From a virus, in IMG/VR virus record IMGVR_UViG_3300045988_176129, positions 24,700 through 88,699 of that record: a DNA stretch of 64,000 nucleotides, one strand, 5' to 3'. Position numbers and translations under genes: made by a program. Shown in pieces: positions 2,303 through 19,578 of the stretch (position 1 is the stretch's first letter; every line of letters begins with the position of its first letter). The notes below the pieces were generated by a model that had not been told where the DNA came from, ran no database searches, and saw nothing but the letters and a program-made list of their open reading frames with translations.

Positions 2303-2607
2303 TTAACAATACCTCCAAAAATTTCGTCATATTGCTCCTGTGTTAAACTACATTTAATATCATATACATAGCGCGGTTCAGCCTCCTCGATTCTCCCATT
2401 ATTAATGCCAATATAGTAATATTGTTCACCGCGAGCTTCCGCCTCATCTCTTATCTTGTCTATATCCCCCTCATATTGAGAAAGATAACCAAAAGACGAC
2501 TTAAATGCTCGCTTCCAACTTACCTTCTTTCCATTTATATAAATAGAAAGCCTATTTATACATCTTTTAGATATATACTTATCTCGAAATTCACTAAGAT
2601 TATCCAT
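2299..2607 (-). CDS. hypothetical protein, paralog of the 2003-2302 gene
   Basis: Tandem paralog with start/stop overlap. Confidence 0.5.
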   Translation of the reverse strand: MDNLSEFRDKYISKRCINRLSIYINGKKVSWKRAFKSSFGYLSQYEGDIDKIRDEAEARGEQYYYIGINNGRIEEAEPRYVYDIKCSLTQEQYDEIFGGIVK

Positions 2608-2618
2608 ATATGTTCTCC

Positions 2619-3251
2619 TTATCTACGAACAGAGCCGTCATTATAAAAACTTATAGCATTATCGCCCTTGTTAGAGTCTTTATCTAATTCCATATAAGCT
2701 TTCAATCTATCTATATCATACTGTACATCTACATAATCAAAAGATTCCTGTATCCTATCAATTGCCGCAATACCTTCTTTTACTAACTTCAATTGCTGTT
2801 GTTTAATTATTCTATCTCTTGCGGAAGTCAGCGTTTTTCGCATTTCTTTTGATGTAGCTGCTGCTATTGCATTATTAATTATATCTATATTAATTTCAAG
2901 ATTATTATTCTTTTTATCTTTAATATAGTGACTTCTATATATTAGAATTATAACACCTATGACTATTAAATCAATAATCCAACCATACATATAAATATTA
3001 ATAAATTTCATTATCCTTATCCCTATTACCGCGAAACAGATTTCTCCTCCTGCAATCATTATATCAGTCATAATCCATCCAATTGAGAAGCCTCCAATCT
3101 CTTTATCGTCAAAGAAATCAATTTGCATAATTTTACATATATCACGGCTATATTTAGATTCCAAAAATTTATTGTATATTATTGTAATAATACTTAAATA
3201 AATGGGAATAGCGTATATCCCGTGAAAAAATACAAGAGCTTTAGCAACCAT
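2619..3251 (-). CDS. membrane protein
   Basis: Several hydrophobic segments followed by a C-terminal coiled-coil-like region. Confidence 0.5.
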   Translation of the reverse strand: MVAKALVFFHGIYAIPIYLSIITIIYNKFLESKYSRDICKIMQIDFFDDKEIGGFSIGWIMTDIMIAGGEICFAVIGIRIMKFINIYMYGWIIDLIVIGVIILIYRSHYIKDKKNNNLEINIDIINNAIAAATSKEMRKTLTSARDRIIKQQQLKLVKEGIAAIDRIQESFDYVDVQYDIDRLKAYMELDKDSNKGDNAISFYNDGSVRR

Positions 3252-3266
3252 TCCTTAATATACCCC

Positions 3267-3767
3267 CTAACAATCAAGATAATATATAATATAATAATCT
3301 TCTATTGGATTATCCGTTATAATATTAGAAATAATATTTTTATCAGGATTATATATATTCTCATATACCATAAACGTATATAATTCTGGATGCTCAATAG
3401 CTTCTACATTGGTTATTACTTCATCCTCATCTGGAACATAACCCTTATTTTCAATTAGCCACTTATCGTACTCAGTAAAATATCCAGCTCTAATTTGAGG
3501 CTTATATTGAAGAAACCAATCAACATAATCTTTTAACTTCATATAATAAAAATTATAATAGCAATCTTTAATATGGGCATCTTCAATCTTCTTTGGTATC
3601 TTTATATCTTTTGGCAATCCATAGTGAGCTGGATAATGCTTATATTCAGGATCAGCGCCCTTTTCAGTTATATTATCAAACCAGTGATAATTTCTTTCAT
3701 CATAAAGATTGTCATTTATTATATTACCTTTATTATCAATAAGATACATATGTATATCTGCTCCCAT
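3267..3767 (-). CDS. hypothetical protein
   Basis: Intact ORF. Confidence 0.5.
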   Translation of the reverse strand: MGADIHMYLIDNKGNIINDNLYDERNYHWFDNITEKGADPEYKHYPAHYGLPKDIKIPKKIEDAHIKDCYYNFYYMKLKDYVDWFLQYKPQIRAGYFTEYDKWLIENKGYVPDEDEVITNVEAIEHPELYTFMVYENIYNPDKNIISNIITDNPIEDYYIIYYLDC

Positions 3768-3770
3768 GAT

Positions 3771-4193
3771 TTATGCCTCCTTTGTTTTTTTTGCAGTTAC
3801 AACCTTGGTTACCTTTGTACGATTATCGTCATACTTATGCGGATATAATTCTTCACAATTTATAGCGTCTGTAATTTCATACATCTGCATATCTCTATTT
3901 ACTAAAAAATTTCTATCAAATAAATTAGAATATTCATATTCCTCGTCATTTGAGTCAAGATAAAAATATGAATTATAAGCTATGTCATTATATAAAAGAA
4001 AACACTCCTTTTCATCCATTAATGTACGAATTGTCTTTAACTCCTCTAACCTTTCTTCTAAATCAGCAATCTTAGAATTTAATAAATCATCAAATTCTTC
4101 TCTAAGCTGTATTTTTATTTCTGGCTTTATATTTTTTGAACTTCTAAATGTCCCACTTGCTAAATCAAATTTTGTTAATGCACTCTTACTCAT
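3771..4193 (-). CDS. hypothetical coiled-coil protein
   Basis: Intact ORF. Confidence 0.5.
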   Translation of the reverse strand: MSKSALTKFDLASGTFRSSKNIKPEIKIQLREEFDDLLNSKIADLEERLEELKTIRTLMDEKECFLLYNDIAYNSYFYLDSNDEEYEYSNLFDRNFLVNRDMQMYEITDAINCEELYPHKYDDNRTKVTKVVTAKKTKEA

Positions 4194-4264
4194 AACTCAT
4201 ACCCTCTTTCTTCATTTTGTATATATATTATATTATAATTTTTATAAAATATCAATAGGGAGAG

Positions 4265-4642
4265 TTATTCCTCTCCCTTAATGTGCGCGATTGCAGCTTC
4301 TATGCTTCCATCATTCTTAGCTGTTATCGTCAGATAATCTCTAACATCAGATTCCGACCATCCACTTTCCGCGCTTAATGTAATACATTGCTTATCGCTT
4401 ATTCCAAAATCATGTGCTTCTTCTCTCAATCTTATATTTATCGAAAAAATTAACCAAGCAATAGCTATAAATACCATGGCTATTGTTTTTAAACAAGCAT
4501 TTCTATAGAAGGCTGCCTTTTTTTCATTCTTTGATTTTTCTGCTCTTGCAATGTCTATATATATAGAAAGAGGTACAATAGCAACAGCCAATGAAAAAAT
4601 AATATACATTATCCACATCCAAATCCCTGTAGCATTCCACAT
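4265..4642 (-). CDS. membrane protein
   Basis: Two N-terminal transmembrane-like segments. Confidence 0.5.
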   Translation of the reverse strand: MWNATGIWMWIMYIIFSLAVAIVPLSIYIDIARAEKSKNEKKAAFYRNACLKTIAMVFIAIAWLIFSINIRLREEAHDFGISDKQCITLSAESGWSESDVRDYLTITAKNDGSIEAAIAHIKGEE

Positions 4643-4643
4643 A

Positions 4644-4838
4644 TTATTCGTACCTCATTTCCCTTTTATTTATTTTATCCATCTTTCTGCGGCGGTTATC
4701 AGTTCTTGCAGGCTTTCCGCCAGGTAATTTACGGTAAGTTTTACAATGCTGGCAAGCCGCATAAAAAGTTCCTTCTTTACCAAGATCACAATTACCCTCT
4801 GCCTTATAATGCAAGCAAGCTATTTCTCTATTCTTCAT
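4644..4838 (-). CDS. small zinc-ribbon-like protein
   Basis: Cys pairs CLHYKAEGNC and CQHC. Confidence 0.45.
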   Translation of the reverse strand: MKNREIACLHYKAEGNCDLGKEGTFYAACQHCKTYRKLPGGKPARTDNRRRKMDKINKREMRYE

Positions 4839-5044
4839 TATTTTACCTCCCCATACGCCAACATATGCAATAAAACAGTACCAATCATTGTAAATAAAAG
4901 AAAAATAATAGTTAAATAACTATAAAATGTTGTAGAATCTACATGTTTTTCTTCTTCTACTTTTGATGAAATGTGTCCTAGAATTATAGTTATCGCCCAC
5001 ATTACAACTGATAAAACCCATATAGCATATACCCATATTTTCAT
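4838..5044 (-). CDS. small membrane protein
   Basis: Hydrophobic ORF. Confidence 0.4.
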   Translation of the reverse strand: MKIWVYAIWVLSVVMWAITIILGHISSKVEEEKHVDSTTFYSYLTIIFLLFTMIGTVLLHMLAYGEVK

Positions 5045-5047
5045 TAT

Positions 5048-5278
5048 CTAGTCACACCTCCTTTTATAAATACAAAGGCATGGAGATCCATCTTCTATTG
5101 TATCAAGAAAAATGCCTTCTCCAATATCATCTGTATCAACAATCCCCTCTGCCATCTCCCATGGGCAGTTATATACCTCGCCTTTCCAAAGAACTTCCCA
5201 ATCTTCAGGTCCAACGTATTCTAAAATCTTAATATAAGCATAGGTATCAAGATTCTTTAATAATTTTCTAATCTTCAT
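5048..5278 (-). CDS. hypothetical protein
   Basis: Intact ORF. Confidence 0.45.
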   Translation of the reverse strand: MKIRKLLKNLDTYAYIKILEYVGPEDWEVLWKGEVYNCPWEMAEGIVDTDDIGEGIFLDTIEDGSPCLCIYKRRCD

Positions 5279-6017
5279 AATCTTCCTCCCATCCCCACTG
5301 ATAGATAAAACCTGAATAATCTATCAAAACTGGCTTTCCTTTTATATAACCAATATTTGCCTCGTGTAAGTCATTGTTATAACTAGCATCTATTAAAAAA
5401 TCAAAAAACTTTATAGTTTCTTCAGTGCCAATCGCGCCAATTAAATCTGCTATCCATCTATCTGGAATACAATTAAAGTATTCATCAAAATTAAAAAAAC
5501 TTGAAGTTACATTTTTTACTAAGGCGATTTCTTCTTTTGTCCTTAAAGCGTCACCGTCAAAAGCGTCATAATAAATTATTGCTTTTTCCTGTATATAAAT
5601 AGGAATATTGTTGTCTATATTTCCATAATAATATTCTTTTGCTATTAAGTTCCCATAGCCTTTTTTACAAATATCATAACATCTATCTACTTCAATTGCA
5701 CAAAAATCATCATGTCCTTCCGGATCGAACCTTGAAAAAGATTCATAATCTTCATTTATCTTTTCATCATAATCATTATTGATAAAATGAGCATCATATA
5801 TTCCCAGAATAGGAATTTTATATACATAATTAGTATTTGTATTAATTGGAATAAGGGCTACCTTAGTTGCGCCTACCCCTATCTCAAAATTTGAAGTAAT
5901 TTCCTCATCCTTATAAAGCCAATCAAAATCGTCCACACAATCAATAGAAGGATTTTCTCTTTTAAAACATTTCTTTATTATAGATATATATTTTTTCTGC
6001 TCTTCATTAATATTCAT
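5268..6017 (-). CDS. hypothetical protein
   Basis: 249-aa ORF. Confidence 0.55.
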   Translation of the reverse strand: MNINEEQKKYISIIKKCFKRENPSIDCVDDFDWLYKDEEITSNFEIGVGATKVALIPINTNTNYVYKIPILGIYDAHFINNDYDEKINEDYESFSRFDPEGHDDFCAIEVDRCYDICKKGYGNLIAKEYYYGNIDNNIPIYIQEKAIIYYDAFDGDALRTKEEIALVKNVTSSFFNFDEYFNCIPDRWIADLIGAIGTEETIKFFDFLIDASYNNDLHEANIGYIKGKPVLIDYSGFIYQWGWEEDYED

Positions 6018-6087
6018 AAAACATCAATTCCTTTCATATCTTATAAATATATTATATAATATTTTAATAAAAATGTCAATAGAGAAA

Positions 6088-6654
6088 TTACTTCCTTTTA
6101 CCTCTGGTAATTATTGTTTGGCGGCGACCCTTATAAACATCATGCTTTTTTACTGTAAAAGCAAGAGTAAAGTCATTTACATCTTCATCAAGCCACACAT
6201 CCGTAAACCAAATTAACACATTCTCACCAAGAGTAAAAGTGTAAGCGACTTTATCCCCATAATAAGAAGTATAACAGCTGCGGTTTTCGAGGTGTAAGGT
6301 TTCCGTATATCTCTGCCCCACTTTTCCATAGAAATCACTGTTTTTATGGGGTAACTCTGGTATAATGATTCGTGATACCGTGTCTTCCGCATGCTCTTTA
6401 ACTTCAACAGTTCCAATCATAGGATTAAAAAGGTAAACATCATTAAAATCCATTTCCGCAGGTATTAAAGGGTTTTCTGCCCCAAGATTGATTGCTGTCG
6501 GAGAGTGCCACTTTAATAATTTATCAAACTTAGCTCCCGCCGCCTTAAGCTGTTCTTTATAAGGATAGGTGTTTCCAATATAAAGAAAAGTCTTTAAGTC
6601 TTTATTAAAGCCATGATCTAATGCCCATTCCATCCTAGATGAATATTTCTTCAT
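6088..6654 (-). CDS. hypothetical protein
   Basis: 188-aa ORF. Confidence 0.55.
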   Translation of the reverse strand: MKKYSSRMEWALDHGFNKDLKTFLYIGNTYPYKEQLKAAGAKFDKLLKWHSPTAINLGAENPLIPAEMDFNDVYLFNPMIGTVEVKEHAEDTVSRIIIPELPHKNSDFYGKVGQRYTETLHLENRSCYTSYYGDKVAYTFTLGENVLIWFTDVWLDEDVNDFTLAFTVKKHDVYKGRRQTIITRGKRK

Positions 6655-6664
6655 ATTAAAACCC

Positions 6665-6847
6665 CTACCAATATTTTACTATTGTACCTATATTATACAT
6701 TTCTCCTATAGCTTTTGGTTTAGTAATCTGCTCTCCGCATTTAGTACACTGAACTATATATTTATTCTTATCTTTTTCACAAGCAATTATTTTTACTGAT
6801 TTATGTTTACAAAAAGCCTTTATTAAACTCATAATTAAGCACCCCAC
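6665..6847 (-). CDS. small zinc-ribbon protein
   Basis: CxxC pairs (CEKD...CTKCGEQ). Confidence 0.4.
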   Translation of the reverse strand: MGCLIMSLIKAFCKHKSVKIIACEKDKNKYIVQCTKCGEQITKPKAIGEMYNIGTIVKYW

Positions 6848-7155
6848 TCCATAATATACTTAGCCATAGTATTCTCAAGTCCCCAAATAGGAGGCTCTCC
6901 ACCTTCAATATCACTATAAAGAATTTCTGGATAAATTCTTTCTACTGCATCTCTAAGAGTTGCAAAGCTTGGACGAAAATAATGCGTCTTATACTGAATA
7001 ACAAGAGCTGAAAGCTCATATGGAGTAATGTCATCAATTCCAGCAATTTCATACCATTCGCTTACCTCTATTGACACATCTGCTTCTGTACCATCCAAAT
7101 GCTTTTCATCTAAATAATCCATAACCAATTTTGTTGCTCTTGTAATAACTTTCAT
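6835..7155 (-). CDS. hypothetical protein
   Basis: Intact ORF. Confidence 0.5.
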   Translation of the reverse strand: MKVITRATKLVMDYLDEKHLDGTEADVSIEVSEWYEIAGIDDITPYELSALVIQYKTHYFRPSFATLRDAVERIYPEILYSDIEGGEPPIWGLENTMAKYIMEWGA

Positions 7156-7158
7156 ATA

Positions 7159-7353
7159 TTAATCCACCTTTCTAACAAGCTTTTCAAGCTTTACTAAATA
7201 AGTTTCAAAATCATCTGTTTCTTTAGGGCAAAGAGTTTTATCTTTTAAGCCCAAATCATAAGAACAATATCCTGGATGTTCTCGGTTGCCCCACATACAT
7301 TCATTACTCTTATCACATTTTTTCATCTTTTCTCCTCTCTTTATCTTACACAT
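7159..7353 (-). CDS. hypothetical Cys-containing small protein
   Basis: First gene of the minus block, preceded by a divergent promoter region. Confidence 0.45.
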   Translation of the reverse strand: MCKIKRGEKMKKCDKSNECMWGNREHPGYCSYDLGLKDKTLCPKETDDFETYLVKLEKLVRKVD

Positions 7354-7557
7354 ATATTATATAATAAAAATAGAAATTTTTCAAGTCATGCGGCATTGCA
7401 GCTTCCGCGAATTTTCCATCAACTGAAAAACTTCCTTTTATATATATTATGCGCGTATAATAATATAATTTTTTATTTTTGTCAACATAATATTCCTTTT
7501 ATTGACAGAAAAAATTTTTTATGATATAATTTTTATAAAGGTAAAGGAGATATAAAT

Positions 7558-7815
7558 ATGGACAAATTGGAAATTCTTGAAAAAAGAATAAAAAATTTAG
7601 AAAATATCGCTCTTCAACAAGGAGAGCAAATAAAAAATATTATAGAAGCATTACAAGCAGAAAATACTTTTATGAAAAATCAAACTAATGTTAATAAACA
7701 GATAACAGAAGCAATACATGAAGCTTTTGTCGAAATTAATGAATTATCTACAAAAGTATCTTCATTAAATAATAAAAAAGAAAAGAGGAGCATGTATGAA
7801 ACCAGGAACCATTAA
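7558..7815 (+). CDS. hypothetical coiled-coil protein
   Basis: RBS aaaggagat upstream. Confidence 0.55.
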   Translation: MDKLEILEKRIKNLENIALQQGEQIKNIIEALQAENTFMKNQTNVNKQITEAIHEAFVEINELSTKVSSLNNKKEKRSMYETRNH

Positions 7816-8014
7816 TATGTCGATAGATTATTTTCAATATTTAATAGACCCATATCCAAAATGGTTTTTTGAAAAATTTAAAGATGTTCGAGAGATTCTA
7901 ATAAATGGAGAAAAATATTTATCATTTCCGCACGGGGAATTATGCGGAAAGGGCGATTATGTTCTTTCTATTGGTTCTTATATGATTCCTTTACGGCAGG
8001 AGGATTGCAAATAA
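7796..8014 (+). CDS. hypothetical protein
   Basis: ORF with RBS. Confidence 0.5.
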   Translation: MKPGTINMSIDYFQYLIDPYPKWFFEKFKDVREILINGEKYLSFPHGELCGKGDYVLSIGSYMIPLRQEDCK

Positions 8015-8244
8015 TGGAGCCTATAAAATTTAACGGAATTATTACTGAACCTCATGTTACAGAAGATGATAAAATAATAGCGACTTGGACTCAGCTCAGA
8101 AAAGGGGAAATTACTTTAAATAATGCTTTTCTTAATTTAAATAATGCTTTCTTTAATTGGGATTTATTAAAAGAGTTAGCAGAATTGAATAAGAATACAA
8201 AAGATAGAGATAGATACAAGGGGATGTTTAAAAATGAAAACTAA
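8014..8244 (+). CDS. hypothetical protein
   Basis: ATG overlaps the upstream stop (TAATG) with RBS aggagg; the longer 7942 start lacks an RBS. Confidence 0.5.
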   Translation: MEPIKFNGIITEPHVTEDDKIIATWTQLRKGEITLNNAFLNLNNAFFNWDLLKELAELNKNTKDRDRYKGMFKNEN

Positions 8245-8557
8245 GCATTATTTATTATATTCAGGCAATAAAGGAAATATAGATGCTCTTTTTGGTGCAT
8301 TAAAGATAGAATTTAAAAATGATATAAAAAGAATAACAAATGAAAATTTTAAGAAAGAAATATATATTGAACAAAATGGGATAATGTATATTTATACTTG
8401 GTATAGGGATTTGCGAGGACGACATTTTGAGGTTGGAGAGTTTGAAGCGGTTTATGTAGATGAATGTTTCTATAATACTAAATATTATTTTAATTTAATC
8501 AATATGAATGATTGGGTTACTCCAGAATCAATTTGTTCAGATATAAGATTTTTTTAG
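8234..8557 (+). CDS. hypothetical protein
   Basis: Intact ORF. Confidence 0.5.
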   Translation: MKTKHYLLYSGNKGNIDALFGALKIEFKNDIKRITNENFKKEIYIEQNGIMYIYTWYRDLRGRHFEVGEFEAVYVDECFYNTKYYFNLINMNDWVTPESICSDIRFF

Positions 8558-8565
8558 GAGAGATT

Positions 8566-8979
8566 ATGTATAAACAAATAATAATAGCAAGGAAAGATTT
8601 GAATATGAGTCCGGGAAAGCTTGCCGCTCAAGTATCACATGGATCAATGGTATTTCTTAGCTGGTTTATTAGAAATAATGCTGATTTAGATGGACATATA
8701 GATGCTTGGTTTGATGAAGGAATTCTTCACAATTGGATTGAGGGTGAGTTTACAAAATGTGTTCTTCAAGCTAAAAATAAGAACCAGTTGCTAAAAGCTA
8801 AAACTATGGCGGAAGGATTAGGGATGACAGAAGGAAAAGATTTTTGGTTGATAAAAGATAATTGCCACACAGAATTAGAACCGGAAGAAGATGGTAGGAC
8901 TCTTACTTGCATAGGTTTCCGCCCAATGGATAGTGAGATAATAGATAAAATAGGTAAAAAATATCATTTATATGTATAA
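8566..8979 (+). CDS. peptidyl-tRNA hydrolase, PTH2 family
   Basis: KQIIIARKDLNMSPGKLAAQVSHGS matches the PTH2 core (VVRTDLxMGKGKIAAQCSHA); start chosen at MYKQ with RBS aggaga. Confidence 0.7.
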   Translation: MYKQIIIARKDLNMSPGKLAAQVSHGSMVFLSWFIRNNADLDGHIDAWFDEGILHNWIEGEFTKCVLQAKNKNQLLKAKTMAEGLGMTEGKDFWLIKDNCHTELEPEEDGRTLTCIGFRPMDSEIIDKIGKKYHLYV

Positions 8980-9385
8980 GAGGGTTTATATTATGAATAA
9001 AAATGTAGAAACTACATGTTATATAGCAAGAGCTATTGATAAAGGTGTTGCATATCTTGGATTAAAAGAAAATGAATATTATACCTTATTTCCTTGCGGC
9101 GATGATGCTTGGATGGTCTATAGACATGGAAAATATATAGGAACTGGCAAGACTTGTTATTTTGAAATTCTATCTTTTAGACTAATGAATAGACCAGTTT
9201 TTAATATTGGGGATGATGTCGCCGCAGAAATAATATTAGATGATTTATCTTTTAAATGGATTAAAGGAATTATTAAAGACATAGAAATATCCAATGTTTT
9301 TGATTCTTATTATTATACTATTGAAGATAAAGAAAATAATGAAATATATGATAATATATGGGAAGATAATATCAAGTTCACATAG
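8972..9385 (+). CDS. hypothetical protein
   Basis: Intact ORF. Confidence 0.5.
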   Translation: MYKRVYIMNKNVETTCYIARAIDKGVAYLGLKENEYYTLFPCGDDAWMVYRHGKYIGTGKTCYFEILSFRLMNRPVFNIGDDVAAEIILDDLSFKWIKGIIKDIEISNVFDSYYYTIEDKENNEIYDNIWEDNIKFT

Positions 9386-9414
9386 AATTACCTATTGACT
9401 TTTCTTTAAAAATT

Positions 9415-9696
9415 TTGTATAATATATACATAATAAAAAGAAAGGAAATGATGAATATGTTTGATGTAGGTAGCCCATATCATATGTATATGATGGAAAA
9501 GGAAGGTATGCTTGATACGCACGCTTCAAAAGTAAATAAACTTATTGAAACATTTAACAGATTGGTGGCATATGGACACGATATTAATGATTCAGAAGTT
9601 CAGGAATATGCTTTTCAGGAATGCGGCATTAGTTATGAAGAACTTTCTGACAGAGACCTTCATAGAATAAAGTCAGCAATTGAAAATTCTTATTAA
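9415..9696 (+). CDS. hypothetical protein
   Basis: Intact ORF; the start may be at the internal MMNMF. Confidence 0.45.
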   Translation: MYNIYIIKRKEMMNMFDVGSPYHMYMMEKEGMLDTHASKVNKLIETFNRLVAYGHDINDSEVQEYAFQECGISYEELSDRDLHRIKSAIENSY

Positions 9697-10086
9697 AAAG
9701 TTTGACTTTTGAAAAAATTTTTGTTATAATAATTATACAAAGTTAAGGAACACAAAGTTCTCTTAACAGGAAAACCAGACCCCGCGGGGAATAAACGGAG
9801 TGACCTGTGAGCGATCAGGGGATAATGACCAGAACATTAAAGATATTACTACTCATGCTTCACTTTTAAAAGAAGGTATACCGGGTGCGGTTTATGGAGA
9901 ACTATTAAAGTTGCAACTTATCCAAAAGAAAAAATCTCCTTTTGGCGAAATCCAAAAGAAAAACTAGCTAGGTTAAATGATAGTATAGAAAACCTAGCAA
10001 TTGTCAAGATATAAATAAATGCATTGACATTTTAAAAAAATTATAGTATAATAAATATATAAAAGAGAGAAAAGGAGAAATGCGCT

Positions 10087-10479
10087 ATGGAGAACACAGC
10101 AAAGATGACACAGATTGATATTTATGAGAAGATTAAGGAGATTGTTTCAGCATCAGAGGATGCAGATGTTGCTACAATTGTAGAGTTCTGTGATAAGAAG
10201 ATTGCTCAGGCAATTGATAAGAGAGAGAAGGCACAGGCTAAGGCTGCTGAGAAGAAGGCAGAGAGTGATGAAATGACAGATGCAATTGCTGAGATTCTTA
10301 CTGAGGATGGTAAGACAGCAGAGGATATTGCTCAGGCTCTTTCAGCGAGATTTGAGGATATTACAAAGGCTAAGGTTGTTTCAAGAATGGGCAAGCTTGT
10401 AGCAGCTGGTAGAGCTTCTAAGGTTAAGGAAGGCAAGAACCCTATGGTTTACATGCTTCCAACAGCAGTAGCTGAGTAA
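10087..10479 (+). CDS. acidic Ala/Glu-rich small protein, paralog family with 60376 and 62421
   Basis: RBS aaaggagaaatg upstream. Confidence 0.55.
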   Translation: MENTAKMTQIDIYEKIKEIVSASEDADVATIVEFCDKKIAQAIDKREKAQAKAAEKKAESDEMTDAIAEILTEDGKTAEDIAQALSARFEDITKAKVVSRMGKLVAAGRASKVKEGKNPMVYMLPTAVAE

Positions 10480-10548
10480 TTATATATTTAGATTATAAAG
10501 TGTTAGGGTAGGAAGGTAACTTTCTACCCTATTTTAATAGGAGGAATT

Positions 10549-11415
10549 ATGTCTTATTTTAATTTAGAATATACAGAAAAATTTAAGTATAAAAATGCGA
10601 ATAATGTTAGTTACTGGATTCTTTATAATGGACATGATGAAGGAGTTAAAGATTTTCTTATAAGAAATAAAGAAAAGCATATAACTATTTGTTTTGCTGA
10701 TAAAATTTTAGAAAATATGGAACTTTATTCAAGCGGAGATAAGTTAATTGATTTTATCATTAATGGAAAAGAAAAATTCTATATAAATTTAGTAAAAGAA
10801 GGAATAAATAATTTTGTTTTACAAATTCCTTATCATGTAGAGGGGGCCAGAGAACTGGCAATCACGCTTAAAGAGAATGGAGTGCCTTTTTATTTTATGG
10901 ATGCGGTTACATCATGGGAACAGTTAAATAGTTTTATTGAAGATGGAGTATCAGATGTTCTCGTGTCTAGCTCTTTTGCTTTTAATATTAGAGACATCGC
11001 AGAAAAATGTCACAAAGAGGGTGTTCAAGTTAGAGTGATTCCGAACATCTATCAATCCGCAGAATATAATGATGGATCAATGGGCTTCTTCATAAGACCA
11101 GAGGCTATTGGTTTATATTCAAAATATATAGATATATTTGAATTAAGATGCTCAAAAGATGTTTGTAACACAATATATGAGATTTTTGCTATTGATAAAG
11201 AATGGTATGGAGACATAAGTGAGATTATAGCGGGTGCCCCAAAAGGAATAACCAATAGGAATATAGTAGAATTATTTGATATAGCAAGAACCAATTGTGG
11301 CAAAAAGTGCGTAAAACCTATGAATGGTTGTAATATATGTGATACTGCTATAAGATTAAGTAAAACTTTTACCGATTATAATATTGAATATAAAAACAAT
11401 AAATTGAAAAAGTAA
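10549..11415 (+). CDS. hypothetical protein with C-terminal Cys cluster
   Basis: RBS aggagg; contains CGKKC...NGCNIC. Confidence 0.55.
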   Translation: MSYFNLEYTEKFKYKNANNVSYWILYNGHDEGVKDFLIRNKEKHITICFADKILENMELYSSGDKLIDFIINGKEKFYINLVKEGINNFVLQIPYHVEGARELAITLKENGVPFYFMDAVTSWEQLNSFIEDGVSDVLVSSSFAFNIRDIAEKCHKEGVQVRVIPNIYQSAEYNDGSMGFFIRPEAIGLYSKYIDIFELRCSKDVCNTIYEIFAIDKEWYGDISEIIAGAPKGITNRNIVELFDIARTNCGKKCVKPMNGCNICDTAIRLSKTFTDYNIEYKNNKLKK

Positions 11416-11464
11416 TAAAAATATATTATAATATATATAGAAGATAAAGAAAGGAAGGGTTCTT

Positions 11465-11743
11465 ATGGCGGCAAGAGGAACAGAAGTAAAAGAAAAATTA
11501 ACTCAGGTATTAACAAAATTATTTCCAGAAAGCTTTATGGATGGCAAGACTCTTAGAATCCCAATGAAAGAGAATGGAGAAATAGTTGAAATAAAGGTGA
11601 CACTGACAGCGGCTAAGGATGTTTTAGGTGGTGCAAATACAGAAGCTTTTACATCAAATAGCTTTATTCCAGTATGTGATATGCCAACAGAGGAAGAAAT
11701 AGAAGAAGTTAAAAAGTATTTAAGTTCAATGGGGATGATATAA
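11465..11743 (+). CDS. hypothetical protein
   Basis: Promoter and RBS upstream. Confidence 0.5.
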   Translation: MAARGTEVKEKLTQVLTKLFPESFMDGKTLRIPMKENGEIVEIKVTLTAAKDVLGGANTEAFTSNSFIPVCDMPTEEEIEEVKKYLSSMGMI

Positions 11744-12030
11744 TGATAAAATATGATGAATGGCAGGATGGCGCAGGTATGTGGCATTGTGGAAATACAT
11801 CTGATCTTACACATGGAAGTAATGATTGGTGGCTTCCTGCTAGATATTTAGGCATTGCCCCATATGAATTTGCTAAACTTTTGGTTGAAAAATTTCATGT
11901 AGATAGAATAAAATACCTTATAAATGGCAATAATATTGGAGTATTAACATATTCTTGGAAAAAGCAATCGGATATGCGAGTTTTTAAAAATTGGTTAAAT
12001 AAAGAGATAAGGACTAGGAAAATATCATAA
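11743..12030 (+). CDS. hypothetical protein
   Basis: Start/stop overlap with the upstream gene. Confidence 0.5.
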   Translation: MIKYDEWQDGAGMWHCGNTSDLTHGSNDWWLPARYLGIAPYEFAKLLVEKFHVDRIKYLINGNNIGVLTYSWKKQSDMRVFKNWLNKEIRTRKIS

Positions 12031-12082
12031 AGATATTTTCCTATTGTTTTATAATAAAATTTTATTATTCTGAGGTGATAAA

Positions 12083-12412
12083 ATGAGTAGAAGTTATAAA
12101 AAACATCCATTTTGCAAAGATGGAAATAGAAGTTCTAAAAAAGATAAAAGAATCGCTAATGGAGTGATAAGAGCAAAAAATAAAAGGATTATTAATGGCG
12201 CAGAAAAGGAAGATATTTCAATAAGATCAAGAGGTGCATATAAGAAAGCCTATAATTCTTATAATATAAATGATTATATTATAAGAAAAACAGAAGAAGA
12301 AAACAGAAGATGGTGGGATGAGCACTCTGTTTTATATGACTCATCATTTGGTGGCTGCCATACTTTTAAAGATTATAAACAAAAGTGGGAAAAAATATAT
12401 AAAAGAAAGTAA
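12083..12412 (+). CDS. basic (Lys/Arg-rich) hypothetical protein
   Basis: RBS gaggtg. Confidence 0.5.
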   Translation: MSRSYKKHPFCKDGNRSSKKDKRIANGVIRAKNKRIINGAEKEDISIRSRGAYKKAYNSYNINDYIIRKTEEENRRWWDEHSVLYDSSFGGCHTFKDYKQKWEKIYKRK

Positions 12413-12556
12413 TTTGGACAAAATATTTTAGTTGACTTCATAAAAATTTTATGTTATAATATGATTATAAGTTTCTTAAGTTAATAAAACTGCTATTGAA
12501 CAGACAAATTTTTTTAACAATTAGGCTACGTACTATAATAAAGATAAGGAGATTTT

Positions 12557-13198
12557 ATGAAGCTACGAAAAATATTTATAGTTGGAGCAACTTTAGTTGT
12601 TCTAATTGCCACTACTAAAACAGGAAAAGTTCAATCAACTGAACGTGTATATGATTTATCTTCTTCTAAAGTAGAGGTTAAGGAATTAACAACAAAAAAA
12701 GTATCAACAGAACAAGAAATAAAAATTGAAACTGGTGGTTTTATGATTCCTACAACAACAGAAGAAATGACTACTGAGGAAGAATATACTACAGAAGCTA
12801 TAACAGAAGAATATTTTGAGTCAGAAACAACAGAGGCGGCAACTGAAGATTATAGTCTTCCTGAACCTATCATAGAAGACACTGAAGAAGAAAGCGCAGA
12901 GGTTTCCGAAGACCCCGCAGCCGCATATTCTTTTGATGAACTCATGTGGATGGGAGTTATTTATTGGGGAGATTATAGATGGACATATTATTCTGAATCT
13001 GTTTTGCCGGGAGAGGGACTTAATATTCCAGGAAGATATACAGATGAAACAGGATTTGTATGTGATGAAAATGGATATATTTGTTTAGCATCAAGTGATT
13101 TAAGTTATGGCACTATTGTTTCTACTCCTTTTGGGCGAATGGGTTGTGTTTATGATTCGGGCTGCCCGAGCGGAACTTTAGATGTATACGTAAGATAA
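12557..13198 (+). CDS. secreted protein with C-terminal 3D (MltA-like) domain
   Basis: Signal peptide, Thr/Glu-rich linker, C-terminal block ending in DSGCPSGTLDVYV that resembles the 3D domain. Confidence 0.55.
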   Translation: MKLRKIFIVGATLVVLIATTKTGKVQSTERVYDLSSSKVEVKELTTKKVSTEQEIKIETGGFMIPTTTEEMTTEEEYTTEAITEEYFESETTEAATEDYSLPEPIIEDTEEESAEVSEDPAAAYSFDELMWMGVIYWGDYRWTYYSESVLPGEGLNIPGRYTDETGFVCDENGYICLASSDLSYGTIVSTPFGRMGCVYDSGCPSGTLDVYVR

Positions 13199-13292
13199 AA
13201 TAAATGTCCAAGTTAATTCTTGGGCATTTTTATTTGATAATTTTTAAATTTTTTTGTATAATATATACAGAAATTAAGAAAGGAATAAAACG

Positions 13293-13505
13293 ATGAAAAA
13301 TAAATATGCAATTGCAGTATGTAATCTTTTGACTCTTCATACTGAGATTTATTTTCTTAATGGATCAAGTAAGTTAGAAGCATTGCAGCATTGGGCAACA
13401 TGGTATTTACATAAAGATTTTGCTTCTTTTGATAATTTTGAAACCTTTAAAACTTTTTTAAGTGATGATGAAGATTTAATAACTCAAGTTAGAAGAGTCG
13501 CTTAA
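13293..13505 (+). CDS. hypothetical protein
   Basis: Promoter and RBS upstream. Confidence 0.45.
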   Translation: MKNKYAIAVCNLLTLHTEIYFLNGSSKLEALQHWATWYLHKDFASFDNFETFKTFLSDDEDLITQVRRVA

Positions 13506-13638
13506 TTGAAAAAATAAAAAAATTATATTATAATATATATACAAAGTTAAGAAAGGGATATAAAAAATAAATAAAAATTTTCTTGACAAAAATGTTAAAA
13601 TATGTTATAATAAAAAAGAAATAAGATACAAAACATTT

Positions 13639-13713
13639 TGGGATGTGGTCTAGTTTGGCTAAGACGCAGGATTTGGGTTCCTGAAATCGAGAGTTCGAGT
13701 CTCTCCATTCCAA
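13639..13713 (+). tRNA. tRNA-Pro(TGG)
   Basis: Hand-folded cloverleaf: 7-bp acceptor, D-stem gtct/agac, anticodon loop tttgggt, T-arm gagag-ttcgagt-ctctc. Confidence 0.8.
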
Positions 13714-13843
13714 TTTTCATAAATTAAATATAATAATTGATATTATAAAAAATTTATGATATAATAATTATATAAGATGAAGGAATGTGAAACATTCCCA
13801 TGTAAGTTCCCTTTGCGGTTTTCTTCTTTATCTTATATATTAT

Positions 13844-13981
13844 TCCCTAGTAGCTCAGTTGGTAGAGTGTCTGACTGTGCGGAAATAGTATAAGCAGTAC
13901 GTCTGTAGCCCAGAAGATTTGAGTTCAAATCTCAATTTCCGATTAATCAGAATGTCGTAGGTTCGAGTCCTACCTGGGGAG
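13844..13981 (+). tRNA. tRNA-like gene with GTG-type anticodon loop interrupted by a ~65-72-nt insertion
   Basis: Canonical acceptor, D-arm and T-arm; the anticodon-stem halves (tctga / tcaga) are separated by 72 nt. Confidence 0.4.
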
Positions 13982-14120
13982 CTAGGTTAAGTTATTCATA
14001 GACTCGCCGATTGCAGAAAGTAGGAATGTTGTTATTTAAAATGGTAACACAGTCGCCGAAAGGACTGTCTGTCAGACTCCTTGACGGAGAATAGGAGTAG
14101 AGTTATAAGTGAAGATGATT

Positions 14121-14145
14121 GGAGGTTCGAATCCTTCCCCGCCGA
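14121..14145 (+). other. orphan canonical T-arm plus 3' acceptor-like element (unresolved tRNA or tRNA-like RNA end)
   Basis: ggagg-ttcgaat-ccttc followed by cccgccg; no 5' partner found within 100 nt. Confidence 0.3.
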
Positions 14146-14312
14146 AAAGTGGTGGGCGCGAAAGGAGTGCTAATCGAAGAACTTATTTTAGTTGAAGTAC
14201 AAAGTGTGTTGCAGCATATGGAGTAAATACTAAAGTAACTCGACAAGATTTACTGCAATAAGTCTTGATAGCTTAGTCATCTAATTGGAAGGATGCCACG
14301 GTATGTGGTCAC

Positions 14313-14337
14313 AGAGGTTCGATTCCTCTCTAAGATT
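14313..14337 (+). other. orphan canonical T-arm element (unresolved tRNA-like)
   Basis: agagg-ttcgatt-cctct followed by ctaagat; a possible 5' partner attttag lies 145 nt upstream. Confidence 0.3.
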
Positions 14338-14548
14338 TAGGCTCGGACTTTAACCCCGAGGGTAATAATTAGGGTTATTGCGTACAGAGAGATTGCCGAA
14401 CATTACGTATCCTCACTCTACCTTAACGAGATAAGGTGTAAAGATGTCTATGAAATGTCGTTTGAAAGAGATTTAGAGAGTTCACGAAGTAGCTCACCTT
14501 GTATCTTCAAGTTATGCTTCTTGGGGATATAGACAAAAAGCATTTTAA

Positions 14549-14620
14549 TCCGATTTAGTACAATGGCTAGTACCCTGGCTTTGTAACCCAGTGATAAGTG
14601 TTCGATTCACTTAATCGGAA
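14549..14620 (+). tRNA. tRNA-Thr(TGT)
   Basis: Acceptor tccgatt/aatcgga, D gtac/gtac, anticodon loop tttgtaa, T aagtg-ttcgatt-cactt. Confidence 0.75.
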
Positions 14621-14744
14621 CTTAAAAATCATGCCATAGCGTAAGCAAAAGGTAGTTAGCTCAAAAGTAATAGATATAGGTCAGCCTTTTTACCTGTCTA
14701 TAGGATAGAGTGTTAGTTTTCTAGGTATGTTCTAACGAATAAAT

Positions 14745-14816
14745 GCCGATGTAGTATAATGGTTAGTACACCTGTCTTCCAAACAGGATATGCGAGTTCG
14801 ATTCTCGTCATCGGCT
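14745..14816 (+). tRNA. tRNA-Gly(TCC)
   Basis: Acceptor gccgatg/catcggc, anticodon loop cttccaa, T gcgag-ttcgatt-ctcgt. Confidence 0.8.
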
Positions 14817-14828
14817 TTAAAATAATTT

Positions 14829-14900
14829 GGGGTTATAACTCAATGGAAGAGTAATTGCTTTGCAAGCAATAGGTTGAGAGTTCGAGTCTCTCTGGCTCCA
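14829..14900 (+). tRNA. tRNA-Ala(TGC)
   Basis: Anticodon loop tttgcaa, T gagag-ttcgagt-ctctc, acceptor with G-U pairs. Confidence 0.75.
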
Positions 14901-14903
14901 CCT

Positions 14904-14976
14904 GCGAAAATAGTTCAGTTGGTAGAGCACACGTCTGATACGCGTGAAGTCGATGGTTCAAATCCATCTTTTCGCA
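14904..14976 (+). tRNA. tRNA-Ile(GAT)
   Basis: D-loop agttggtagagc, anticodon loop ctgatac, T gatgg-ttcaaat-ccatc. Confidence 0.8.
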
Positions 14977-14982
14977 TTATAT

Positions 14983-15055
14983 ACTGGTTTAGTTTAATGG
15001 ATAAAATATTTAGCTACGAACTAAAAGAGTATAGGTTCAATTCCTATAACCAGTA
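14983..15055 (+). tRNA. tRNA-Arg(ACG)
   Basis: Acceptor actggtt/aaccagt, anticodon loop ctacgaa, T atagg-ttcaatt-cctat. Confidence 0.75.
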
Positions 15056-15135
15056 TTAAATGTATTTATAATGGTAACTGGCAAACTTATTTGACTTAGA
15101 ATCAAATATTTGAGAGTTTAAATTTTTTAGACGCA

Positions 15136-15164
15136 TTGACAAAAATAAAAATTTTTGTTATAAT
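15136..15164 (+). promoter_or_regulatory. sigma70-type promoter (TTGACA-17-TGnTATAAT) driving a non-coding region
   Basis: ttgaca ... tgttataat. Confidence 0.6.
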
Positions 15165-15300
15165 ATTATTAAGGAAGTTGCGGAAAGAAAACTGTTTAAC
15201 CTTATCAAAAATAAACAAAACTGCTGACCTTATTTCAGTGGAGAATAGGGTATAAAGGAAAATATAAGAGAGAACCCGTGCAGCAACCGGTACGTAAAAT
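15165..15300 (+). ncRNA. candidate small non-coding RNA (no ORF; flanked by promoters)
   Basis: Lies between two promoters; locally GC-richer; contains paired segments gcaaccggtacg...ggttgcccc. Confidence 0.25.
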
Positions 15301-15439
15301 AATGGTTGCCCCTTTAATTTGATATTTTTAAAAATTTTTGATATAATATATATATCAAATAAAAAAGAAAAATACTGAGTTGTCATTCTTCTAAGTATTT
15401 GGATAGTAATAACAAAAGAATGTTCGCTGGATTGGTTAG

Positions 15440-15490
15440 TTGGACTTGAGAATTTTCTCAATTGTGGTTCGATTCCACTTTGACCACTTA
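15440..15490 (+). other. degenerate tRNA-like element (acceptor + anticodon-like arm + T-arm, no D-arm)
   Basis: tggttag ... ttgag-aattttc-ctcaa ... gtgg-ttcgatt-ccac-tttgacca. Confidence 0.25.
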
Positions 15491-15504
15491 TCATAAAACA
15501 ATAT

Positions 15505-15533
15505 TTGACAAAAATAAAATTTTATGATATAAT
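15505..15533 (+). promoter_or_regulatory. sigma70-type promoter upstream of the large non-coding element
   Basis: ttgaca-17-tgatataat. Confidence 0.6.
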
Positions 15534-15634
15534 AATTATATAAGAAATCTTGTCAATGGATTAATTAATAGCATAAGCGCAGAGATGGGTTAGTTATAAT
15601 AGTGAAGAAAGCTAATCAGTTCGCACTTTGATAA

Positions 15635-16291
15635 TTGAATACTTTAGTCAAAATATAATGTAATAACTCAGTGCAGAATGGTGAATTCAGCCATGCTGAG
15701 AAATCTTGAGAAACTCCAGTAACAACCGAAGCAAGGATACTTGCGGATATTGCTGTTTTCTTAATTGTGAAATTAAGAAAAGAAAGGATAGGCTCCAACG
15801 AGTAGAGAGATTGTGCTGTGGGGATTACGGTTTATAGCGTAGGACGTGTCTCGGTGATGGAATAGAGGCGAAGGTTAATAGCTTTCGCTGAATCAAAGTG
15901 AGGGTTTAGCTGGTGACTGTATCAAACCTTTGAAATGCCAATAAATCATTTTGTCGTGATGTTTTAGAAATAGAACTATAAGAGATGCAGATGACCTGAA
16001 AGTAGCCTAAGACAAAATTAAAGAAGAACAATTTTAATTCAAGTTGTATGTAAATGGAAATTACATAAAAGATTGAAAATATTGCTGAAAGTAATGGTGA
16101 AATCTAGGGGTAGTCATTCCCCTCTAAGTTAAGTGAGTTTCGACTCATGGGGTAAAGAAGTACAGACTAGCTATCTGGTTGCTATTTATAGCATTTAACT
16201 CAGCCTTTATCTCCTTAGTTGCGTAATAATAAACAAGTAATACATAGTAAGAGGAAGCTCTATTATAATATATTTTGACTAAAGTATTCAA
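15635..16291 (+). ncRNA. ~650-nt non-coding element bounded by perfect 23-bp inverted repeats (candidate large structured RNA, or MITE-like insertion)
   Basis: ttgaatactttagtcaaaatata at 15635-15657 is the exact reverse complement of 16269-16291; no ORF over 60 aa inside; higher GC than flanks; sits between a promoter and tRNA-Glu. Confidence 0.45.
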
Positions 16292-16300
16292 GATGGCGAT

Positions 16301-16372
16301 GGCGGTATCGTCTAGTGGTTAGGACAGCGGCTTTTCACGCCGCAAACCCGAGTTCAAATCTCGGTACCGTCA
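16301..16372 (+). tRNA. tRNA-Glu(TTC)
   Basis: Acceptor ggcggta/taccgtc, anticodon stem gcggc/gccgc, loop ttttcac, T ccgag-ttcaaat-ctcgg. Confidence 0.8.
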
Positions 16373-16562
16373 CTTTTAAGACTCATCATCTTAAAATGGG
16401 AAGAAATTGCTCCCAATGTAAAGTAATTTGACTTGATATTTCAAGAGGTAAATATCCCTGTATACTAGGAGACGGTATAACAGTTATTTGATGGTTTCTC
16501 TGTTAAAAGAAAAGAATTATTAGGGTTGCAACCTGGTGATGACAAATAGCTATAGTTAATAT

Positions 16563-16635
16563 CGCGAATTGGACAGTATCGGTAGCTGCGTAGCCTCATA
16601 AGCTAATCAGAGGGGTTCGACTCCCCTATTCGCAA
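16563..16635 (+). tRNA. tRNA-Met(CAT), initiator-like (C1-A72 mismatch)
   Basis: Acceptor cgcgaat / attcgca with a C:A mismatch at the top; anticodon loop ctcataa; T agggg-ttcgact-cccct; irregular D-arm. Confidence 0.6.
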
Positions 16636-17035
16636 GCAAAAGTACAATGATTTCATTTTTCCTTTCAGATATGTGTTTGTTGTATTGTACTTTTATATTT
16701 GGTGGTTGGTTTTTTCCAAGAGTTTACCAACTAAAAAACAAAACTTGTTCATATATAGTTCTTTTCATAATAGGCGGAGGAGCCTTTCTTCCGCCTTTAA
16801 TTCTGACTATTATTGAATTTACATATAAATTTCAAAGAAGGAGATTGATATTATGAAAGATAGAGAGTGGGGCAATTAAGTAGGCTAGGAAAAGTAAAAC
16901 ATCAGGTGGGTTTATAATTCCATAGACCTACTTGCCGCAAGTTTAATATTCATTAAGAGATATGAAATATTACTTGAAAAAATAAAAAAATTATAATATA
17001 ATATATGTATAAGATAAAGAAAGGAAATAAGAATT

Positions 17036-17158
17036 ATGACAAATGAAATCAAACTTGCAACATTAAAGAACAGATTGGCTACTATTGAAGCAAAGGGAAA
17101 GAGTACTCCTGGAGTTTTAAGAAAGTTAAGAAGACAGATTCGCTCTCTTGAGCGTTAA
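17036..17158 (+). CDS. 40-aa basic peptide (MTNEIKLATLKNRLATIEAKGKST...)
   Basis: Promoter and RBS aaaggaaat upstream; not in the supplied track because under 60 aa. Confidence 0.4.
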   Translation: MTNEIKLATLKNRLATIEAKGKSTPGVLRKLRRQIRSLER

Positions 17159-17169
17159 TCTGTAAAAAA

Positions 17170-17243
17170 GGGAAATTAGCTTAGTTGGTTAAAGCAGGCG
17201 GCTCATAACCGCAAGAGCCTAGGTTCGAATCCTAGATTTCCCA
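17170..17243 (+). tRNA. tRNA-Met(CAT) (elongator or Ile-lysidine type)
   Basis: Acceptor gggaaat/atttccc, anticodon loop ctcataa, T ctagg-ttcgaat-cctag. Confidence 0.75.
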
Positions 17244-17247
17244 CTAA

Positions 17248-17320
17248 GGATCGTAAGCTAACTTAGTAGAAGCACAAGACTGAAAATCTTGGGGACTTGG
17301 AGCGTAACCAAGACGATCCA
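17248..17320 (+). tRNA. tRNA-Phe(GAA)-like with non-canonical T-loop
   Basis: Perfect acceptor ggatcgt/acgatcc; anticodon stem caaga/tcttg, loop ctgaaaa; T-arm cttgg-agcgtaa-ccaag lacks the TTC. Confidence 0.45.
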
Positions 17321-17486
17321 CTTGGCGGGTAATGCATTTGCCCCACCACCTAGTGCCTAAGCTGGGGAACTTTGGGAAAGATTCTCAATAGTAAAGGATT
17401 AAGACTTTGCAAATTATTAGATGAAATGGGCGATAATCATAAACAGGAACAATTACTTCGCCTCCTGTGGTAATCAAATATTATAT

Positions 17487-17570
17487 GGATGGGTATGTCT
17501 AGTGGCGATGACAGCGGTCTGTAAAACCGTGACGTAAGATACACCGTAGGTTCGACTCCTACCCCATCCA
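17487..17570 (+). tRNA. tRNA-Tyr(GTA), long variable arm
   Basis: Acceptor ggatggg/cccatcc, anticodon loop ctgtaaa, variable arm about 14 nt, T gtagg-ttcgact-cctac. Confidence 0.75.
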
Positions 17571-17768
17571 CTTAGATAAGATAAAAACAGGCGGGAGACG
17601 CGGCTCGCTAGTGAAAAGTCTTTAAGAATGACAAATAAACAAAACATTCAAGCTATATTTCTCTTTGAGACAAGGTACCTCTGAGTTCGCGCTATTGAGG
17701 TTTAAAGCACCGTGCGGTTCCGGAAAAACATAGCAACCTTGGGAGAAATATATCATCTTATCTATTAA

Positions 17769-17850
17769 GTCGAGATGGCGAAATTGGTATACGCGGTAGA
17801 CTCAAACTCTACTCTAGAAATAGTTGTGGGTTCAACTCTCACTCTCGACA
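17769..17850 (+). tRNA. tRNA-Leu(CAA)
   Basis: Acceptor gtcgaga/tctcgac, 3-bp D-stem, anticodon loop ctcaaac, long variable arm, T gtggg-ttcaact-ctcac. Confidence 0.7.
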
Positions 17851-17856
17851 TTATAT

Positions 17857-17939
17857 GCGCCCGTGGTGAAATTGGTAAACACATGAGATTTAAGCTCTCA
17901 CGACTTCGGGTCTTGCGGGTTCGAGTCCCGCTGGGCGCA
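17857..17939 (+). tRNA. tRNA-Leu(TAA)
   Basis: Acceptor gcgcccg/tgggcgc, anticodon loop tttaagc, long variable arm, T gcggg-ttcgagt-cccgc. Confidence 0.75.
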
Positions 17940-18169
17940 CTAAAATTGAGTAGAAAGTTTGGAATCTTTCTAATAAATCTCAACCTGGGTGCTCAATTTT
18001 ATATATAATCTTATGCGCAAAAAGATTAAAGAACAATGGTAAGTTTCCATTACAGAGTATTGCTTTTATATAGAATAATGGATTGGATAAAAGCAATAGA
18101 TGAAATTACAAGAGGTTGATTCTAAACCTTATGGAGCTTGAAATACAGGTACACATAAAAAGAATCATC

Positions 18170-18240
18170 GCGGGTGTAGCTTAATGGGTAGAGCACTTCA
18201 ATGTTAATGGAGGGATGAGGTTCGAATCCTCCGCCCGATC
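18170..18240 (+). tRNA. tRNA-Asn(GTT)-like with irregular acceptor stem
   Basis: D gctt-aatgggta-gagc, anticodon stem cttca/tggag, loop atgttaa, T (t)gagg-ttcgaat-cctcc; the acceptor pairs only with a bulge. Confidence 0.45.
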
Positions 18241-19539: not shown

Positions 19540-19578
19540 CTTATACTTATAAGAAATTGTTTGTAATTTCATAATAAT

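Follow-up and report, generated by a model that had tools for sequence, protein, structure and literature searches.

The cleavage of peptidyl-tRNA (EC 3.1.1.29) is catalyzed by two types of enzymes, Pth1 (PF01195) and Pth2 (PTH2, PF01981), which carry out the same reaction and are unrelated in fold and sequence. Bacteria normally use the former, a point made in the original prediction for this locus and established in the literature. Pth2 is a homodimeric enzyme (PMC11994314) and its fold is described as a four-stranded sheet with four helices (PMC11202043). The archaeal proteins available for comparison are those of Thermoplasma acidophilum (Ta0108, 1RLK), Pyrococcus horikoshii (PH1539, 1WN2 and 2D3K), S. 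solfataricus (1XTY), A. fulgidus (AF2095, 3ERJ) and M. jannaschii (MJ0051, 2ZV3), while the human counterpart is PTRH2, also named Bit1 (1Q7S).

Genes for Pth2 have been reported in phages and giant viruses since at least 2008-2013, and the functional idea has likewise been published. Earlier examples are ORF188 of Klebsiella phage RaK2, gp36 of mycobacteriophage Myrna and gp70 of mycobacteriophage Baka, and the genes of Xanthomonas phages XacN1 and Xoo-sp13, the Sinorhizobium phiM12 group, Agrobacterium phage Atu_ph07, Salicola SCTP-2, Klosneuvirus, Pithovirus and fowlpox virus; the GenBank records of Myrna, Baka, XacN1, Xoo-sp13, the phiM12 group, Atu_ph07 and SCTP-2 are already annotated as peptidyl-tRNA hydrolase. 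The RaK2 authors noted in 2013 a type 2 peptidyl-tRNA hydrolase in their phage, Pth2 being the archaeal/eukaryotic form (PMC3622015). Morgado and Vicente (2018) found a PTH2-like gene in about 96% of the tRNA arrays of cluster C mycobacteriophages and suggested that extra rescue factors go with the extra tRNAs (PMC5966550). Iyer et al. (2021) described PTH2 across jumbo phages, stressing that it is not the type of the host, and proposed that it hydrolyses peptidyl-tRNA linkages in ribosome rescue after tRNA cleavage (PMC7824862). No experimental study of any phage Pth2, nor any link of such a protein to defence, was found in the literature searched.

The window, i.e. the whole stretch of 64,000 nucleotides that was analysed, has about 30% G+C and shows a strand switch near 7.4 kb. 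Its gene for a PTH2-family peptidyl-tRNA hydrolase lies on the plus strand at 8566-8979; the ORF runs from an ATG at 8566 to a TAA at 8977-8979 and comprises 137 codons before the stop. A Shine-Dalgarno-like AGGAG at 8556-8560 (+), read directly from the sequence, stands 5 nt before the ATG. A longer variant beginning with TTG at 8512 is also in the mechanical ORF list; the ATG at 8566 is preferred as the start, since a ribosome binding site precedes it, the upstream gene has already ended at 8557 and independent assemblies call the same start.

The nearest strong promoter upstream of PTH2 is a sigma-70-type match at 7502-7530 (+), TTGACA-17-TATAAT with an upstream TG, which agrees with the consensus at 12 of 12 bases and would head a putative PTH2 operon. 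Behind it the plus-strand ORFs are tightly packed or overlapping: four small ones spanning 7558-8557 (7558-7815, 7796-8014, 8014-8244 and 8234-8557; 85, 72, 76 and 107 aa) are followed by PTH2 as the fifth gene, and the same four precede PTH2 in three related loci (L149, L151 and L152). The downstream ORF (8993-9385, +; 130 aa) starts 14 nt after the PTH2 stop and is conserved beside PTH2 only in the window's own lineage. For the immediate neighbours of PTH2, Pfam and PHROG scans returned no known family and nothing informative. Near-consensus sigma-70 matches on the plus strand (at least 11 of 12 bases) number 29 in the window, 17 of which, including several at 12/12, fall within the 11.5 kb between 7.5 and 19 kb, an unusual density; judged from these promoter sequences, this part of the window looks like an early region read by the host polymerase, and PTH2 would be expressed early from its consensus promoter.

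The original prediction had assigned the protein to the PTH2-type, that is archaeal/eukaryotic, hydrolases and placed it in a phage-like genome, proposing a Pfam search as a check; the assignment has been borne out by HMM searches, PDB sequence searches, fold and aligned catalytic positions. In Pfam, PF01981 matches with 75.2 bits against a gathering cut-off of 23 (E 6.2e-21), over the full domain (profile positions 1-115 of 115, residues 2-136), and is the sole family matching at E<=1; at the same threshold, the search of the window protein gave no match to Pth1 (PF01195). Residues 3-27, the peptide quoted in support of the prediction (KQIIIARKDLNMSPGKLAAQVSHGS), align with YKQVIVARADLKLSKGKLAAQVAHGA of P. 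horikoshii Pth2. The NCBIfam Pth2 models NF003314 and TIGR00283 also match over their full length, with scores below the equivalog cut-offs (78.2 vs 126 and 58.9 vs 82 bits, respectively), while a PHROGs search assigns the protein to phrog_1866, which bears no functional label. By its sequence, the window protein is thus best described as a divergent member of the Pth2 family, which is not an equivalog by NCBI's rule nor a near-copy of the archaeal enzyme. It represents a further example of a kind already described and publicly annotated, also within its own clade.

Searches of the PDB with the window protein sequence retrieved Pth2 chains only. With a profile of close homologues, T. acidophilum Ta0108 was the best match (E 7e-16) and Pth2 chains continued to 4e-07; further matches were those of P. 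horikoshii, a 2026 entry named peptidyl-tRNA hydrolase, A. fulgidus, S. solfataricus, human Bit1/PTRH2 and M. jannaschii. An AF2 monomer model built on an alignment of 120 homologues reached a pLDDT of 94.3 and a pTM of 0.88. Its elements (E2-9, H16-38, H51-58, E63-69, H72-84, E93-98, E112-118, H123-130 and a short C-terminal bridge at 134-135) give four main strands and four helices, which is the Pth2 fold as published. A first AlphaFold model, based on 12 near-identical sequences, was discarded for its pLDDT of 47. When the model was compared with the PDB by Foldseek, the top 14 matches (E<=0.001) were all Pth2 structures, with probability 1.0 and, for the crystal chains, a target-normalised TM of 0.74-0.82, after which E jumps from 4e-05 to 0.7. 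The top matches in a viral structure library are already named peptidyl-tRNA hydrolase; the viral structures retrieved come from phages Atu_ph07, RaK2, Myrna, phiN3, CcrBL9 and VH7D, as well as from giant viruses and fowlpox virus.

Like the archaeal enzymes, the window protein is a single domain that can be aligned with them end to end, at 22-31% identity in structural alignments and with a target-normalised TM of about 0.8; the N-terminal R.DL.(M/L)..GK.AAQV.H motif and the D..T.(L/V)EP segment, holding the positions of K18, D86 and T90, are common to both. Differently from them, it has 137 amino acids instead of 115-121, scores below the NCBIfam equivalog cut-offs and comes from a phage that infects bacteria, in which Pth1 is the enzyme used. 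Fold and family are also shared with human PTRH2/Bit1 (profile E 6.8e-09, TM 0.80-0.82); conversely, the phage protein has no mitochondrial anchor, and the human one has a second role related to apoptosis. The viral proteins described earlier likewise belong to the same family and fold, are annotated as peptidyl-tRNA hydrolase and derive from large viruses whose genomes also carry tRNAs or genes related to translation; identity of the window protein with those of cultured phages is only 30-38%.

Mutagenesis, in work by Fromant and colleagues dated 2005, reportedly identified residues that matter in S. solfataricus Pth2; we take these to be K18, D86 and T90, and assume their roles accordingly. 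In the HMMER alignment, K18, D98 and T102 of the window protein stand opposite K18, D86 and T90 of the S. solfataricus enzyme, and structure 1XTY has K, D and T at these places. Conservation of the three positions among 121 homologues is 98-99% (K18 in 119, D98 in 118 and T102 in 120). A histidine replaces the putative catalytic Asp98 in the closest sister protein, P0001, which is 93% identical and was found in two samples (loci L151 and L152), and in two other homologues residue 98 is Asn or Tyr.

Compared with archaeal Pth2, the window protein carries about 20 extra residues, distributed over three loops: the one that joins helix 1 to strand 2 holds about 12 of them, 4 more precede strand 3, and another 4 stand directly after the T-E-L-E-P segment, which adjoins the putative active site. 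The insertion sites vary further in length inside the clade, with up to 9 residues after T-E-L-E-P in some variants. Since there are three such insertions, one of them beside the putative active site, the substrate preference could differ from that of the archaeal enzymes.

Homologues are abundant, 3,486 being found at E<=1e-5, many of them on viral contigs of 130-350 kb. The best 120 of these 3,486 are 77-93% identical to the window protein and form a large, tight clade on metagenomic contigs of about 130-350 kb; one homologue is named 'PTH2 family peptidyl-tRNA hydrolase' by JGI and another 'aminoacyl-tRNA hydrolase' by NCBI, and one of the publicly named ones is 82% identical. At least 80 PTH2 loci were found in IMG/VR, many on contigs of 145-165 kb. 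Among species-representative genomes there are seven loci with 57-75% identity, mostly in Lachnospiraceae MAGs, in a Lachnospiraceae-like isolate and in Lacrimispora amygdalina, which points weakly to this host group. No close cultured relative was found, and a megablast of the region against GenBank phages gave no match. The assignment of the window to a phage follows from its gene content and from the presence of its relatives on IMG/VR viral contigs; no capsid or terminase gene was found among the ORFs scanned within the window. The source is probably a large phage of gut Clostridia, at least about 137 kb long, with low G+C and many tRNA genes. Its genome appears to measure about 137-165 kb, below the 200-kb 'jumbo' threshold; as a large phage genome with RNA-repair and translation-related genes, it fits the accessory setting in which PTH2 was described by Iyer et al. 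(2021).

An independent metagenomic contig of 136.7 kb (ENA ERZ28565401 scaffold_163) encodes an identical PTH2 protein with an unchanged gene order; it is collinear with the window, with 98% identity across the PTH2 region (window 2309-14043). Two further samples show this gene order for the 93% identical sister as well, and thus the arrangement is stable in the window's own lineage. Outside it the surroundings differ: for none of 14 neighbour ORFs of the window was a homologue found within 8 kb of PTH2 in 90 other loci, and DNA similarity to other lineages, at 81-82%, ends at the borders of the PTH2 gene. The protein itself is 86-89% identical on about 80 viral contigs, while the best GyrA matches in the viral collection reach 51-71% and lie on other contigs. 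A recent horizontal transfer of PTH2 was considered and rejected, given a saturated dS of about 1.6 and a dN/dS of 0.056. These values, the median dN/dS and the dS obtained by the pairwise Nei-Gojobori method on 23 distinct relatives, indicate strong purifying selection over an old divergence, in genomes that are mosaic, and show the PTH2 ORF to be a genuine gene.

In 33 of 90 related loci a gene for RNA repair lies within 6 kb of PTH2, mostly upstream and on the same strand, against roughly 10% expected if a gene were placed at random in a genome of 150 kb that has a single module of this kind; as the 90 loci are not independent, this linkage is suggestive and no more. The genes involved are kinases (24 loci), RNA ligases (20), Thg1 (6), RlaP (5) and phosphoesterases (7), the kinases being of the polynucleotide-kinase-like AAA_33 type, some with a C-terminal extension. 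The linkage is absent in about two thirds of the loci. In the three loci L001-L003, whose PTH2 is 82% identical, the 7 kb upstream of PTH2 encode a PARP-domain protein adjoining a Macro-domain protein, together with Thg1 and an RlaP nucleotidyltransferase; in two of them, L002 and L003, an IS605 OrfB/TnpB-like gene lies at the edge of the locus. A separate 308-aa Band_7 protein is encoded near PTH2 in relatives.

The original prediction also counted other tRNA-centred functions in this genome, and the window indeed contains 21 tRNA genes, a ROOL RNA and a module with Thg1, RNA ligase, kinase and phosphoesterases. The tRNA array (13638-20160, +), defined by ARAGORN and Rfam tRNA matches, covers 18 amino acids, Val and Trp being absent, and starts 4.7 kb downstream of PTH2 on the same strand. 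In Enterococcus phage VRE9_4 a tRNA array is likewise found about 4 kb downstream of the PTH2 homologue, and PTH2 is near tRNA arrays in cluster C mycobacteriophages as well (PMC5966550). A position next to a tRNA array was rejected as a general rule, since tRNA genes are missing from the 8 kb around PTH2 in most relatives.

Inside the array, between tRNA-Arg (14982-15056) and tRNA-Glu (16301-16373), lies a full-length ROOL RNA (15643-16280, +; Rfam RF03087, 255.9 bits vs a gathering cut-off of 99.1, E 7e-58, model positions 1-574 of 574). The minus-strand ORF 15102-15494 of the mechanical list, just upstream of ROOL, is probably spurious. At 13844-13981 (+) the Rfam tRNA model matches end to end over 138 nt with 54 bits, and the element, which is not called by ARAGORN, may represent a tRNA carrying some 65 inserted nt. 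Another Rfam tRNA match, at 19580-19651 (+), is borderline (29.9 bits vs 29). In L149, the locus of a collinear relative (98% identical across window 2309-14043), an insertion of 855 bp (17633-18487, corresponding to window position 16334/16335) with an HNH_3 endonuclease ORF splits tRNA-Glu(UUC) between nucleotides 34 and 35, the classic position for group I introns of tRNAs; the tRNA is intact in the window, and ARAGORN calls no tRNA-Glu in L149. A search of the insertion for a group I intron gave no Rfam match even at E<=10. Directly 3' of the last tRNA gene, a 321-aa ORF (20273-21238, +) has a sub-threshold radical SAM match (23.6 vs 29.5 bits) and, from this similarity, may code for an enzyme of tRNA or nucleoside modification.

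The RNA/tRNA repair module occupies 44117-49749 on the plus strand, 35 kb from PTH2, and looks complete by Pfam. A Thg1-family 3'-5' polymerase (44117-44977) is followed in it by an RNA ligase (45984-47219) that has a PHA02142 OB domain; then come two metallophosphoesterases (47527-48303 and 49186-49749), between which lies a P-loop AAA_33 kinase (48699-49193), and all five are on the plus strand. Some related phage contigs have homologues of these genes at a distance of 1-3 kb from PTH2. The window also encodes gyrase B and A, a NAD-dependent DNA ligase, a GIY-YIG homing endonuclease and an endolysin-type amidase with a peptidoglycan-binding domain. In an 817-aa protein (38802-41255, +), a weak SPFH/Band 7 match overlaps a major-vault-protein 'shoulder' domain (59.5 bits). 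Repeat proteins of cell-surface type are also present, with a YadA head repeat at 27259-28518, a BspA-type leucine-rich repeat at 28979-30310 and, on the minus strand, a Listeria-Bacteroides repeat protein at 30868-32340.

With a probability of roughly 0.7, we interpret the gene as encoding an active PTH2-type peptidyl-tRNA hydrolase (EC 3.1.1.29) that forms part of a tRNA-maintenance kit of the phage. Family, fold, aligned catalytic positions, purifying selection and the recurrent linkage to RNA-repair genes in relatives support this. Its expected reaction, by analogy with archaeal Pth2 and human PTRH2, is hydrolysis of the ester linkage that joins the 3'-terminal adenosine of a tRNA to a nascent peptide or to an N-blocked amino acid; the substrates of the enzyme would be peptidyl-tRNAs dropped off or released from stalled ribosomes, and free tRNA would return to the pool. 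In the infected cell it would supplement the unrelated Pth1 of the host. Together with the near-complete tRNA set, Thg1, the RNA ligase, an end-healing kinase and the phosphoesterases, PTH2 would allow protein synthesis to continue even if tRNAs become depleted, damaged or trapped. Against this interpretation weigh the sub-equivalog scores, the three loops, the D98H sister, the distance of 35 kb from the repair module and the rarity of tRNA genes beside PTH2 in relatives.

Other explanations have been considered in the light of the same data. That the ORF is non-functional, either by chance or as a decaying relic, has a negligible probability, as nothing in its favour was found and it is excluded by thousands of full-length homologues, the low dN/dS and the confident fold model; the ribosome binding site and the operon setting also speak against it. 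A neofunctionalised PTH2 fold, acting on another ester substrate or as a binding protein rather than as a peptidyl-tRNA hydrolase, would agree with the non-enzymatic second role of human PTRH2/Bit1, with the failure to reach either NCBIfam cut-off, with three clade-specific and internally variable loop insertions and with the histidine at position 98 in two samples of the sister lineage. However, the aligned catalytic positions and the GK..AAQV.H and D..T.(L/V)EP segments are nearly invariant, and the domain can be aligned over its entire length with enzymes whose activity is proven, no extra domain being present, which makes such a change of function improbable.

A dedicated counter-defence enzyme, undoing an attack of the host on charged tRNA, is a reading to which we give slightly less than one chance in five. 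Its targets would be N-acetyl-aminoacyl-tRNAs made by GNAT toxins (TacT/AtaT/ItaT), or peptidyl-tRNA fragments left by anticodon nucleases, which would have to be cleared, on or off ribosomes, before ligase, kinase and Thg1 repair the tRNA. Indeed, Pth reverses the acetylation of glycyl-tRNA by TacT (PMC9241777), PTH2 lies directly downstream of RNA-repair genes in about one third of the related loci, its region is dense in promoter matches and small ORFs and early-looking, and its conservation (86-89%) exceeds that of GyrA (51-71%). In the extended form of this proposal, which is equally unlikely, PTH2 might be a counter-defence factor under unusually strong selection in gut phages and not a housekeeping supplement; it would act with the RNA-repair genes on the products of host systems that disable charged tRNA (tRNA-acetylating GNAT toxins, anticodon nucleases or other ribosome-stalling abortive-infection effectors), with the loops beside the active site adapted to such damaged or modified substrates. 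On the other side, the present data identify no specific host system, and the linkage to RNA repair is partial and absent in the window. Moreover, general recycling uses the same chemistry, and thus counter-defence would be a special case of the tRNA-maintenance function and not a different enzyme. Both peptidyl-tRNA recycling under stress and the countering of ribosome-stalling defences are plausible as putative roles of PTH2, and both are ideas already published for jumbo phages (PMC7824862).

As an annotation, the PTH2 gene of the window is a minor result, since its kind was already known; what the present analysis adds is the divergence of the protein, its setting with promoter, tRNA array and ROOL, and the linkage to repair genes in 33 of 90 loci. 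PHROG 1866, which contains the phage PTH2 family, is labelled 'unknown function', and consequently PHROG-based annotation calls phage PTH2 hypothetical. This is the case of the homologue in Enterococcus phage VRE9_4 (PP680570.1, 96757-97158; 4986-5387 in locus L153), recorded as 'hypothetical protein', yet identified as PTH2 by Pfam; relabelling PHROG 1866 would be an easy annotation fix. More generally, phage PTH2, with its 3,486 homologues and a dN/dS of about 0.06, is a common gene under strong constraint, and its function as a hydrolase is a long-standing assumption. The recurrent adjacency to polynucleotide kinase, RNA ligase, Thg1 and RlaP gives modest genomic support to a participation of Pth2 in the response of phages to tRNA damage.
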